A DNA stretch of 12,349 nt from a bacterium (lineage in GTDB: Bacteria > SZUA-182 > DTGQ01 > JAFGSM01), in contig JBLIRP010000102.1 in the NCBI GenBank assembly GCA_049472355.1, positions 1 through 12,349 on the forward strand, given 5' to 3'. The first letter of the stretch is position 1. Each line of letters begins with the position of its first letter. The translations under genes and the position numbers were made by a program. Positions 1,659 through 5,341 of this stretch are shown in pieces. Below the pieces are notes generated by a model. That model ran no database searches, was not told the DNA's origin, and was given only the letters and a program-made list of their open reading frames with translations.

Positions 1659-1927
1659 GGGGTCAGGTCTTGAAATGACAGTTTTTGGGAGCATCCCCCG
1701 TACCCGCCGCGGAATATGAGATATGTTGCTGATATTAAGAGCATAGGTTTTGTTTTCGGAACAAACGCTCATGCCGCTTTAGCGGCGCCACGAAGGATGA
1801 AAATATAATTTTCAATAGGATATGTGATATTTTCGGAACAAACGCTCATGCCAATTTATGGCACCACGAAGCATGAAAATATGATTCTATTTTCGAGAAA
1901 AAAACTGACAATTCAAGACCTGACCCC
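1659..1927. mobile_element. Non-autonomous MITE/REP-like element E1 (269 bp) with 28-bp terminal inverted repeats and two internal hairpin units
   Basis: Left end GGGGTCAGGTCTTGAAATGACAGTTTTT (1659-1686) versus reverse complement of 1900-1927 GGGGTCAGGTCTTGAATTGTCAGTTTTT, 26/28. Internal exact 23-bp direct repeat TTTTCGGAACAAACGCTCATGCC at 1753-1775 and 1830-1852. Mobility is inferred. Confidence 0.75.
1884..1911 (-). promoter_or_regulatory. Possible inward-facing sigma70 promoter in the right end of E1
   Basis: Minus strand TTGTCA-N16-TAGAAT; positionally homologous to the promoter-like motif at 4067-4095. Confidence 0.4.
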
Positions 1928-1938
1928 AAATCACGAGA

Positions 1939-1968
1939 TTGACAAATTCCTGTTATCTTGGGTAGAAT
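1939..1968 (+). promoter_or_regulatory. Putative sigma70 promoter of the gmd operon
   Basis: TTGACA (1939-1944)-N18-TAGAAT (1963-1968), 40 bp upstream of the ATG at 2009. Confidence 0.65.
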
Positions 1969-2008
1969 AGGACAGAATTTCAATGAAACGAAAATACAAG
2001 GAGTTGCT

Positions 2009-3094
2009 ATGAAAAGGGCATTGGTCACCGGCATTACCGGCCAGGACGGGGCATACCTTGCGGAATTCCTGTTGAAGAAGGGATACGAGGTGCACGGCAT
2101 CAAGCGCCGGGCCTCCCTCTTCAACACCCAGCGGGTGGATCACCTGTACCGCGATCCCCACGAAAAGGGGGTCGCCTTTTTCATGCACTACGGCGATCTC
2201 ACCGATTCCACCAACCTGATCAGGATCATCCAGGAGGTCAAGCCCGATGAGATCTACAACCTGGGCGCACAGAGCCACGTCATGGTGTCCTTCGAGACGC
2301 CGGAATACACTGCAAATTCGGATGCCATGGGGACCCTCCGCCTGCTGGAGGCGCTGCGCATCCTGAACATGACCGATACGGTCCGATTCTACCAGGCATC
2401 CACCAGCGAGCTGTACGGCCTGGTGCAGGAGACCCCCCAGACGGAGAAGACCCCCTTCTATCCCCGTAGCCCCTACGGGGTGGCAAAGCTCTATGCCTAC
2501 TGGATCACGGTGAACTACCGGGAGGCATACCACATCTTTGCGTGTAACGGCATCCTGTTCAACCACGAGTCCCCGTTGCGTGGCGAGACCTTTCTCACCC
2601 GCAAAATCACCAGGGGGGTCGCCCGGATAAAACTCGGCCTTCAGGACCGGCTTTTCCTGGGGAACCTCGACGCCCGCCGTGATTGGGGGTATGCACCGGA
2701 TTATGTCCGGGCCATGTGGCTTATCCTGCAGCAGGATGAGCCTGACGATTACGTCATCGCCACCGGGGAGAACCATTCCGTGCGGGAATTCGTGGAAAAG
2801 GCCTTTGCCGAGGTGGGTATGGAGATCGCCTGGGAGGGCCAGGGGATCGACGAGAAGGGAATCGATCCGGAAAACGGCGTGGCGCGGGTTGAGGTGGACC
2901 CCCGGTATTTCAGGCCCACGGAGGTGGAATGCCTGCTGGGGGACGCCACCAAGGCACGGGAGAAGCTGGGCTGGAAACCGGAGACCGGGTTCGAGGACCT
3001 GATTCGCCTCATGATCACGGAGGACCTGAAGGAGGCGGAGAGGGACCACCTGTGCCATGAGGCCGGTTTCAGGGTGTACAATTACCATGAATGA
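2009..3094 (+). CDS. gmd: GDP-mannose 4,6-dehydratase
   Basis: [65 protein letters not shown] (YxxxK), [40 protein letters not shown] at 1998-2003 supports ATG 2009 (361 aa) over the track start at 1958. Confidence 0.98.
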
Positions 3095-3106
3095 GGGGAA
3101 ATCCTG

Positions 3107-3946
3107 ATGCGCCGTGCCCTTGTGACGGTTCTTATCCTTACCAATATCCTCCTGCTGATCGGCGTCATCTGGCTCCATGCATTGGTGGGCGAGAAGGGAA
3201 AGGACATCGCGCGGCTCCAGGAGCAGGTGGCATACCTCGCCGGGCACCTTCCCGCAGGGGAAGGCATGGAGCGGGTATCGGCATCGGAGGAACGGATACG
3301 CTCCCTCATCGGGGACCTCGGCGGCAAAAATCTCATCACCCAGTACCAGGCGGGATTGCAGCTCAAGAAGATCGGCCCGCCCGCGGTGCCGTATCTGATG
3401 GAGGCGTTGAAGGGGAGCGAGGGGAGGGACACCAGGCCCCTTCTTCTGCTGTTGCAGGGCATGGGTGATGCGGACCTGACCCCTGATCTCATGGATATAT
3501 ACCGGTCCTCACAGGATGAGGTGAGCAGGGTGGGGATCATCACCATACTCGGGAAGTGGGGGGACTACCGGGCAGAGGGCATCATCCGCGCGGCGGCGCA
3601 GGAGCAAGACTGGCGGCTCAGGACCGCTGCGGCCCAGGCATTGGGCAATTTCGAGGGGGACCAGGCAGCGGCGTCGGCCCTTATTCCGCTTCTTTCAGAC
3701 AAGAACCGTTACGTGCGCTCCACCGCCCAGAATGCACTCCGGAGCCTTGCCGTGGGTGAGGACGGCATCGACCTCTTCACCGGCCTGCTGAAACAGGGGG
3801 ATGCGGATATGCGGTACCTGCTCGTGCGGCACCTGTCCAAGGTGGGGGCAAAGGAGGCCCGCCCCGTGCTGGAAGCGGCTGCCAAGGATACGAACGAGGC
3901 CGTGCGCAAGGCCGCCCTGGAGGCCCTTGCCTCCGGGCAACAGTGA
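3107..3946 (+). CDS. Membrane-anchored HEAT/PBS-lyase-like repeat protein (279 aa)
   Basis: N-terminal hydrophobic helix (ALVTVLILTNILLLIGVIWL) followed by HEAT-like repeats: LKKIGPPAVPYLMEAL, DWRLRTAAAQALG, LIPLLSDKNRYVRSTAQNAL, AAKDTNEAVRKAALEAL. Starts 12 bp after the gmd stop, GAGGGG RBS. Confidence 0.85.
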   Translation: MRRALVTVLILTNILLLIGVIWLHALVGEKGKDIARLQEQVAYLAGHLPAGEGMERVSASEERIRSLIGDLGGKNLITQYQAGLQLKKIGPPAVPYLMEALKGSEGRDTRPLLLLLQGMGDADLTPDLMDIYRSSQDEVSRVGIITILGKWGDYRAEGIIRAAAQEQDWRLRTAAAQALGNFEGDQAAASALIPLLSDKNRYVRSTAQNALRSLAVGEDGIDLFTGLLKQGDADMRYLLVRHLSKVGAKEARPVLEAAAKDTNEAVRKAALEALASGQQ

Positions 3947-4050
3947 GGCCCTTCTTCCGATCTCATGGCAAGATATGTGATCCCCGTCGCTGAAATGACC
4001 GAAAAAAATAAAAAGGAGATCTCTCGAAGCGTGCCTTAAAAGGGTGGCTT

Positions 4051-4149
4051 GGGGTCAGGTCTTGGATTGACAGTCTTTGTCTCCGAAAATAAAATCATAT
4101 GTTCATGCTTCATGGCGCTGCAAAGTGGCATGAGCATTTGTCTCGGACA
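4051..4149 (+). mobile_element. Half element E2: one end motif plus one hairpin unit
   Basis: About 81/99 identity by manual alignment to the reverse complement of 1830-1927 (right part of E1). No closing inverted end before the gene at 4225. Confidence 0.7.
4067..4095 (+). promoter_or_regulatory. Near-consensus sigma70 promoter inside E2, pointing toward the beta-barrel gene
   Basis: TTGACA (4067-4072)-N17-TAAAAT (4090-4095). Confidence 0.65.
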
Positions 4150-4224
4150 CGGGGCCGATTATTCGCCTTTATGGATTAAGGATGGTTTCTGCCGTCAATT
4201 TTTAAGAGAAATGGGGGAGGAATT

Positions 4225-4740
4225 ATGAGCATTAATAAAAGACATGCCTTTCTTGTAGTCATCGTCGTCATCACGTTCGTCTTTTTGGCCTTCACGTCAA
4301 AGGTTATGGCCCAGGGGTTGTCGGGGATGCGTTGGAATGGATGGGGAGCGCGCGTCGGTCTGAGCGATGACCCCGATCAGGTATATGGCGGCGTGCATCT
4401 CAACATGGGAGAGTTTGCACGGGATGTACGCCTCAGGCCGAGCATGGAGCTTGGATTGGGTGATGACGTGACGGTCCTGCAAATACTGGCCGAGGTGCAC
4501 TATGTCTTTTCGAGGGTCCGGCCCTGGACACCCTATCTGGGCGGCGGACTGGGACTGACCTATGTCAATTTCGATGACGATCATCCCGGAGATGACAGCG
4601 ATACGGAGGTTTCCCTGAGCCCTATCTTCGGGATCGAGACCGGGTTGAATCGAGGCAAAAGGCTTTTCTTCGAGCTTAAATTCGGTCTCGGTGATGATGA
4701 TCCCGACATCAAGATAGGGGTGGGAATAAGCTGGAAGTAG
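4225..4740 (+). CDS. Small outer-membrane beta-barrel protein (OmpA/OmpW-like barrel), 171 aa
   Basis: Signal peptide ending near VMA-Q, alternating hydrophobic strands (WGARVGL, YGGVHL, AEVHYVF, WTPYLGGGLGLTYV, LFFELKF), aromatic C-terminal strand IKIGVGISWK; GGAGG RBS. Confidence 0.85.
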   Translation: MSINKRHAFLVVIVVITFVFLAFTSKVMAQGLSGMRWNGWGARVGLSDDPDQVYGGVHLNMGEFARDVRLRPSMELGLGDDVTVLQILAEVHYVFSRVRPWTPYLGGGLGLTYVNFDDDHPGDDSDTEVSLSPIFGIETGLNRGKRLFFELKFGLGDDDPDIKIGVGISWK

Positions 4741-4746
4741 GATTAT

Positions 4747-4886
4747 GGGGTCAGGTCTTGAATTGACAGGTTTTGTTCCGAAAATATCCCGTATTCACTT
4801 GAAAATATAGCATTTTTATAATTCGTGGCGCCACGAATCGGCATGAGGGTTTGTTGCAAGAAACTGATATTTCAAGACCTGACCCC
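4747..4886. mobile_element. Non-autonomous MITE/REP-like element E3 (140 bp) with one internal hairpin unit
   Basis: Perfect 16-bp terminal inverted repeat GGGGTCAGGTCTTGAA (4747-4762 / 4871-4886), 23/28 when extended. The interior aligns with the reverse complement of E1 1753-1842. Confidence 0.75.
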
Positions 4887-5050
4887 ATCTTTGCCATCTT
4901 TGTTTTTGCCTGGGTATTGATTCCTGTGACGCGTTGTAGTATATTTTTCCATAGCAATCATTCCTCTTGGATTCTCCATCTTTGCTCAAATAATCCTTAT
5001 GGCGTGCATCGCAGGCACTCTTTCGGCCTGCGGGCAGGAACAAATCACTG

Positions 5051-5069
5051 GTAGTATCCGGGATACTAC
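5051..5069. repeat. Perfect 9-1-9 inverted repeat
   Basis: GTAGTATCC-G-GGATACTAC. Confidence 0.85.
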
Positions 5070-5125
5070 ATCTTCGCTTTACCATCACCTTATAATTTAG
5101 TCTCTGCGGGTTTAATTTCCCGCCA

Positions 5126-5157
5126 ATACGCCGCTGCTTGCGTCGGGGCAATTTATT
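5126..5157 (+). repeat. Second dispersed hairpin repeat family, copy 1
   Basis: ATACGCCGCTGCTTGCGTCGGGGCAATTTATT; 23/32 ungapped identity with 8047-8078. Confidence 0.55.
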
Positions 5158-5226
5158 GGATCAGCGCCGTCGTTTTCCCTTCTCTGTTTTTATAATTCAG
5201 CCGGTTATAGGAAAGCTGTTAACCAG

Positions 5227-5341
5227 ACTTTCATCCTTCATCGTGATCGAAAGATCATGGGTATTCATATGAGAGCAGTCAACTAATCATGTGTTTTCAA
5301 AACCCTCATGCCTCGTTGTGATGGAACAATCATGGGTGTTT
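5227..5341 (+). repeat. Two diverged free-standing copies of the E1-E3 hairpin unit (75-bp period), without terminal inverted repeats
   Basis: ACTTTCATCCTTCATCGTGATCGAAAGATCATGGGTATTC (5227-5266) and ACCCTCATGCCTCGTTGTGATGGAACAATCATGGGTGTTT (5302-5341) fit the consensus TCATnCYTCRTnGYG-stem-loop-CATGRGnRTT. Confidence 0.65.

Follow-up and report, generated by a model that had tools for sequence, protein, structure and literature searches.

What kind of element is the short hairpin that recurs in a 12,349-bp contig from a bacterium of the SZUA-182 lineage (JBLIRP010000102.1 in assembly GCA_049472355.1; the whole stretch is referred to as the window)? A first-pass annotation had reported six copies of this bulged structure of about 41 nt, with coordinates and strands that are correct for all six, and had taken it for a structure under selection, either a repetitive extragenic palindromic (REP)-like class or a small RNA motif. 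Our analysis leads to another identity: the copies are almost certainly the left ends of miniatures of the IS110 family of insertion sequences. These miniatures, of 60-78 bp, probably depend for movement on an RNA-guided IS110 recombinase that acts in trans and would grip their joined ends as a folded-back single strand. We refer to the strand on which the six copies were read as the hairpin strand.

A profile built from the six copies and iterated three times recovers 182 copies in the bacterium's own assembly (G000; 3.49 Mb, 87.5% complete) and none in the reversed genome. These copies form 135 clusters, with 33 of the 35 multi-copy clusters arranged head to tail, and fall into three classes told apart by their upper stem. 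One strict version of the hairpin pattern is held by an estimated ~5200 metagenome stretches.

The hairpin as an IS110 left end

The connection to IS110 comes from 182 loci found by hairpin pattern (36 genome, 23 viral and 123 metagenome loci, several of them from few genomes). An IS110 transposase, whole or partial, is present in 13 of these loci, each time with the hairpin a short way upstream; the left end is 75-210 nt from the gene and in the same orientation, that is, on the strand opposite to the hairpin strand. Both of the proteins scanned carry the DEDD (PF01548) and Transposase_20 (PF02371) domains above cut-off. The ends of the element are fixed by genome G265, where four copies at different sites start behind an AA core, leave 5 nt ahead of the stem and end in TTTC-N5-AA. 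The 2-nt core is present at both ends, in these copies as well as in comparisons with empty sites of genome G006, a close relative. The same end layout, with cores AA or AG, is found in elements of Planctomycetota, Bacillota, Betaproteobacteria and Actinomycetota, and at locus L316 the hairpin nearly equals the window's class-A hairpin. A strict form of the end motif recovers 17 of the 22 representatives of this clade of transposases, while neither end motif nor RNA is seen in any of 16 other IS110s. Pfam-found IS110 loci in five genomes and in relatives gave no significant hairpin match with the own-genome profile, and the divergent L116, a clade member, was picked out by eye only. Matches to the short pattern on viral contigs are mostly due to chance, leaving one relevant locus, with one more found through its protein. 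No sequence-related solved structure was found. At L326, on a Variovorax plasmid, two element copies stand head to tail, the right end of one joined directly to the next left end and the left flank repeated.

The copies in the window and in the genome consist of left end, filler and right end, with no gene, and their layout matches the ends of the full-length elements. Each unit runs from a core (AA) through 5 or 6 nt, a stem-loop bounded by ATG and CAC, steps of 4, 2 and 2 nt, ATGAAAAT, filler, ATTTTC and a further 5 nt to the next core; what had been described as a TTTC foot of the hairpin is the subterminal inverted repeat of the element (ATGAAAAT/ATTTTC). This layout is retained in most copies. 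Window units are 60-78 bp long, and array spacings in the genome begin at 54 bp, with one outlier of 39. The window and its G006 ortholog differ by whole units. Comparison of 28 orthologous places within 686 kb yielded six clean empty sites, the rest being shared or unclear, and at these six the gain of units of 60, 63, 118, 121, 124 and 185 bp is precise, with only the core region repeated. Each gain occurred at a GATG-AA-like site, similar to the right end of the unit itself.

Covariation, counted by script, upholds the earlier description of the upper stem, in which pairing is kept while the sequence changes: Watson-Crick pairs dominate at stem pairs 4-7 (in 125 distinct own-genome units they fill 296/342 cells, and in 137 units from other sources 361/405), and C-G, G-C, A-T and T-A all occur at one position. 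The lower stem (ATGCT-TCRT/ATGRGYRT), which had been drawn as a covarying helix, does no better than column shuffles of 24 aligned copies (280/500 for the percentage paired, 196/500 for covariation). Its outer pairs drop to 38-71% in other organisms, and the sequence of its 5' arm tracks a segment of the guide RNA described below, not the opposite arm. Wobble pairs had been said to work on one strand only; this holds for a conserved G.T at the stem base (115/125 units, the bias in the second set, from other sources, being partly forced by the search patterns) and fails for the inner stem (12 vs 14 in one set, 18 vs 13 in the other), and in 43/125 units the second stem pair wobbles on the complement of the hairpin strand. 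Folded singly as DNA the copies are weak: only the copy at 4099 beats its own shuffles (z -3.0), and the other five, on the hairpin strand, reach z -0.5 to -1.4. What survives of the proposal of structure under selection is a DNA hairpin that is probably recognised in the folded, single-stranded form of the hairpin strand.

The class-C long units (n=48; for example C13:15085, C79:10990 and C138:31310 of the own assembly) contain a heptamer tract, TGTAGAA/TGTCGAA/TATCGAA, whose length changes mostly in steps of 7. We take these tracts to resemble tracts beside four-helix-bundle genes; no four-helix-bundle family was found in the own assembly. In these 48 copies, which are related and not independent, the arm at the unit boundary pairs with the 3' arm better than the inner arm does in 28 cases, equally well in 17 and worse in 3, and the C before the stem is kept at the boundary arm in 48/48 copies versus 13/48 at the inner arm. 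Because the boundary arm pairs better and keeps this C, the stem seems to be read by structure across a loop of ~65-110 nt.

A predicted guide RNA and a proposed folded donor

Beside the transposase lies a conserved non-coding two-loop sequence that aligns across the clade and holds four guide-like segments, the two loops having been assigned by eye. It stands upstream of the gene in some clade members and downstream in others, the ends remaining the same, and this variable position blurs the IS110/IS1111 split. The segments were compared with the element ends and flanks in 22 transposase clusters (<65% amino-acid identity), with permutation among clusters. The 3' segment of loop 1 (the left-target guide) equals the left flank in 95/147 comparisons versus 53.1 when permuted (21 clusters), and the 3' segment of loop 2 (the right-end guide) equals the right end in 103/119 versus 55.3 (17 clusters, those that have a right end). 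For the right-target guide, the 5' segment of loop 1, complementarity to the right flank is seen in 45/65 versus 27.1 (13 clusters, three having been dropped for wrong right-end calls); a further complement peak for this guide at offset +28 (z 4.2) is taken as composition noise. The 5' segment of loop 2, the displaced guide, has no match at the canonical place beside the core (39/110 versus 42.4 permuted). It equals instead a site behind the hairpin, 8 nt before ATGAAA, in 105/132 comparisons versus 63.4, a value reached in 0/2000 permutations (z 6.9) and the sole peak among 140 offset and strand settings. Measured from the left end, this site is ~22-35 nt into the element, and it shares its strand with the site of the right-end guide. 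The permutation values are overstated because kin share sequence, and a comparison of own with swapped guides is the fairer test: among 11 pairs of near relatives chosen from the tree, the displaced guide fits its own element better in 9 and ties in 2.

By their covariation with these sites, the segments point to a two-loop RNA whose guides match both target and donor, with a target-loop order that is the IS1111-type order given in the parts covered of PMC11187229. Since the right-end and displaced guides match the same strand, both donor guides would pair with one strand, the hairpin strand, and the canonical rule, by which the guides of the donor loop bind one strand each next to the core, appears not to hold here. 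As a separate observation on the target guides, at L187, L170 and about 12 metagenome loci (L157-L161, L186, L205, L217) hairpins lie right at the ends of ATP-binding cassette (ABC)-permease-like paralogous genes, and the target guide of one clade member spells the last codons of that gene family.

If the copies are IS110 miniatures, a single-stranded donor is the probable one, and the guide geometry fits it. In the model that we favor, excision would release the hairpin strand as a single-stranded circle, a product reported, in the parts of the sources covered, for IS621 and CazIS110 (10.64898/2026.08.31.748434; 10.1101/2025.10.25.684509). In IS621, according to the covered parts of a further study (PMC11208158), cleavage and exchange begin with the strand to which the 3'-side guides pair, and the hairpin strand is the counterpart of that strand here. 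At the joined ends the inverted repeats would pair at one side and the hairpin would form at the other; around the core, ~10 and 12 nt of the folded strand would stay unpaired, with the two guide sites facing each other, and this open core could mimic a melted duplex donor. A single strand exchange would then insert the folded strand, and replication or repair would complete the insertion, as with integron attC sites. Arrays could grow through target guides that are able to spell out the right end of their own element, as happens in G251, where miniatures are stacked beside a full element. Among 79 natural junctions the more stable fold is on the hairpin strand in 57 and on the other in 19.

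The same miniature IS110 ends could also serve a double-stranded donor, held as a cruciform or as two donor loops each with a half-site, so that the hairpin would only bring the displaced site close to the core. We regard this as rather unlikely. The two strands are predicted to pair their ends equally well (3.71 vs 3.67 bp), as would also be expected of a cruciform, and the inner-stem wobbles lack a strand bias; donor-only half-match excision has been reported for IS621, and the covered parts of 10.64898/2026.03.19.712850 describe ISPpu10 targeting as enhanced by a stem-loop that forms inside duplex DNA. A duplex donor is harder to reconcile with both donor guides being able to pair with one strand only, or with conserved stem-base G.T pairs on the hairpin strand only. 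Single units of 60-63 bp also insert precisely, and duplex circles do not readily form at that length.

In addition to the equal end pairing and the symmetric inner wobbles, several observations weigh against a folded single-stranded donor or against its setting in this clade. No replication-strand bias was found (42 vs 39, by a crude proxy, skew in GC content at third codon positions (GC3)), CazIS110 integration is said to prefer double-stranded donors, and in ISPpu9 circles still form when the left-end palindrome is mutated (PMC12288879, parts covered), in an end whose sequence differs from that here. The one clade member from the same genus, in G009, is split and has guide sites that differ from those of the window. 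Neither an intact transposase nor a guide RNA was found in the own assembly at its 87.5% completeness, and RNAalifold gave no consensus fold for the alignments of the predicted guide RNA. In the tree the 22 representatives fall on one side of a branch with support 99, in a clade gathered by homology to two of its own members, and its monophyly is therefore partly by construction.

That no IS110 enzyme acts at all, the units being relics of IS110 ends whose copy number changes by recombination or slippage, or which ride passively in a miniature of the Y1-transposase type, seems to us improbable. The missing transposase speaks for it (the own assembly holds only a 43-residue remnant of this clade's transposase, without ends, at C145:3851-3979 on the minus strand), as do the two within-window unit differences, both of which lie in direct-repeat arrays, and several arrays that lie inside Y1-type inverted repeats which come and go whole. 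Such relics do not account for solo units at unique empty sites, devoid of Y1 ends and placed exactly at an AA core, or for an end layout retained in most copies.

The first-pass assignment itself, to a REP-like class served by an HUH (Y1) nuclease or to a small structured RNA, is the least probable of all: although hairpins occur at Y1-type inverted repeats at three places in the window and the upper stem covaries, we rule out a REP/RAYT or IS200/IS605 end, given no significant copy in 30 Y1-transposase loci (best E 0.24; loci were obtained for 30 of 54 matches), inverted doublets in only 2/35 multi-copy clusters and empty Y1 miniatures without the hairpin in G012, and likewise a small structured RNA, given no Rfam match to the hairpin (one chance match elsewhere, E 0.14), a hairpin strand that serves as template for the flanking genes more often than not (56 vs 30 clusters) and the direct link to IS110 genes. 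A tRNA scan also returned nothing.

Units and host miniatures in the window

The three window arrays just mentioned sit at the inverted ends (GGGGTCAGGTCTTGAA) of a separate, Y1-type miniature. Its left terminal inverted repeat (GGGGTCAGGTCTTGAA...) at 1659..1686 (+) opens the first array; in L050 a Y1 transposase gene lies between these same ends. The array begins with a decayed mini-IS110 unit at 1687..1764 (+), recognised by its sequence and present in G006 too, which has a truncated left end, a right end TTTTC-GGAAC at 1753-1762 and the core AA at 1763-1764. It is followed by a 77-bp unit at 1765..1841 (+) that holds the hairpin copy 1763-1804 (-) and comprises a 6-nt spacer, the stem-loop 1771-1788, the guide-matched site 1789-1794, ATGAAAAT at 1797-1804, the right end 1830-1839 and the core AA 1840-1841; the G006 ortholog has one unit fewer. 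The 60-bp unit at 1842..1901 (+) holds copy 1840-1880, with its stem-loop at 1848-1864, ATGAAAAT at 1873-1880, right end at 1890-1899 and core AA at 1900-1901, and the right terminal inverted repeat of the host miniature closes the array at 1900..1927 (-).

A solitary Y1-type terminal inverted repeat at 4051..4079 (+), present in G006, adjoins a 61-bp unit at 4077..4137 (-) that contains copy 4099-4139 and has its left core at 4138-4139. A Y1-type miniature with both inverted repeats spans 4747..4886, is not in the G006 ortholog and has one unit inside it, of 78 bp with a decayed left end, at 4773..4850 (-; copy 4812-4852, left core 4851-4852). The last array, 5204..5339, is of the GATC class and consists of a unit of ~60 bp at 5204..5263 (-; copy 5227-5266), whose right boundary is approximate, and a 76-bp unit at 5264..5339 (-; copy 5302-5341, left core 5340-5341); G006 holds a third 76-bp unit here. 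Two further places differ between the genomes. At 5097-5173 a 75-bp GC-rich palindromic stretch, probably another small mobile repeat, is not in the G006 ortholog and is skipped in one contig of run X3, and around 7815 the window is a near-empty site where G006 has a Y1-type miniature with one hairpin unit.

All window copies are intergenic, and the genes around them are a nucleotide-sugar dehydrogenase gene, gmd, a HEAT-repeat gene, a 171-aa gene and yifB. Clustering of neighbor genes at 36 genome loci revealed no recurring partner; the neighbors are unrelated genes. As for the host element, its empty versions in G012 measure 60-65 bp. The Y1 transposase family was not found in a family scan of the own genome. 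A 393-bp element at C45:5992-6384 of that genome, with GGGGTCAGG inverted ends and pieces of the Y1 transposase gene that is whole in L050, is an internal deletion derivative. Among known systems the host is of the kind of the TIRtrons and TIRYT families in the covered parts of PMC3733652, whose GGGG-led motif fits the GGGGTCAG ends around the three window arrays; the counterpart of those families here is the host element, not the hairpin.

Comparison with known IS110 systems

Gene-less IS110 miniatures are already known. ISPpu9 of Pseudomonas putida KT2440 belongs to the IS110 family; its left box, of 43 bp, bears a palindrome, its right box is short and its core is 2 nt long, and its miniature MITEPpu9 has both boxes, forms circles and occurs in tandem copies, all of which is like the units here (PMC12288879, in the parts covered, as for what follows). 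The left box of ISPpu9 is another sequence, with neither the ATG..CAC stem base nor the ATGAAAAT repeat, and its palindrome is dispensable for circles; MITEPpu9 carries a small RNA gene and is present in 8 copies, whereas the units here are 54-78 bp of filler and ends in ~182 copies. No guide mapping appears in the covered parts of that paper. Tandem non-coding units beside IS110 genes have also been described (10.64898/2026.08.14.744561, parts covered), and in the literature searched we found no IS110 miniatures beyond these two cases. To them the window adds a minimal unit, empty sites and a class with long loops, and IS110 ends explain a very common, unannotated intergenic repeat.

Whether the donors used by IS110 bridge recombinases are single- or double-stranded is described as unsettled in the covered parts of 10.64898/2026.08.31.748434, and the ends of this clade seem to spell the answer. 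The miniatures offer a minimal substrate, an oligonucleotide of 55-65 nt for which stem, guide site and core are exactly predicted. Should the model be true, it would provide a programmable recombinase for single-stranded DNA donors; and since the stem would tolerate loops of 2 to ~100 nt, cargo could ride in the stem loop as well as between the ends. We found no description in the literature searched of a donor guide on the same strand and displaced by a hairpin, a statement on which figures and bioRxiv supplements may bear (10.64898/2026.10.21.760802 Fig. S12; PMC11208160 Extended Data Fig. 10). Published guide mapping in 25-nt windows around the core would tend to miss such a displaced guide.

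IS621 and the IS1111-group seekRNA elements ISEc11, ISKpn4 and ISPa11 share with this clade a DEDD recombinase, a 2-nt core, subterminal inverted repeats, a two-loop guide RNA that may precede or follow the gene, and the IS1111-type order of the target loop (PMC11208160, PMC11208158 and PMC11187229, in the parts covered). In those elements each loop pairs with both strands by the core, whereas here both donor guides would pair with one strand, and one donor guide site sits behind a hairpin of free length. ISPpu10 is alike in that a DNA stem-loop adds to guide pairing; there, in the parts of the report covered, the stem-loop is in the target and enhances only, and the donor guides lie on opposite strands (10.64898/2026.03.19.712850). 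A different likeness is offered by integrons. In attC sites a folded bottom strand with a variable loop length is the recombination substrate. The likeness is in the folded strand as substrate; here the enzyme would be an RNA-guided DEDD recombinase and not a tyrosine integrase, and the copies are scattered, each an end of a mobile unit and not a cassette border. We judge the chances evenly balanced that a widespread IS110 clade, with members in Desulfobacterota-like metagenome-assembled genomes, Planctomycetota, Bacillota, Betaproteobacteria and Actinomycetota, uses a bridge RNA on a folded single-stranded donor as the RNA-guided counterpart of attC, with units of ~55-65 nt as complete substrates and a stem that tolerates the range of loops given above.

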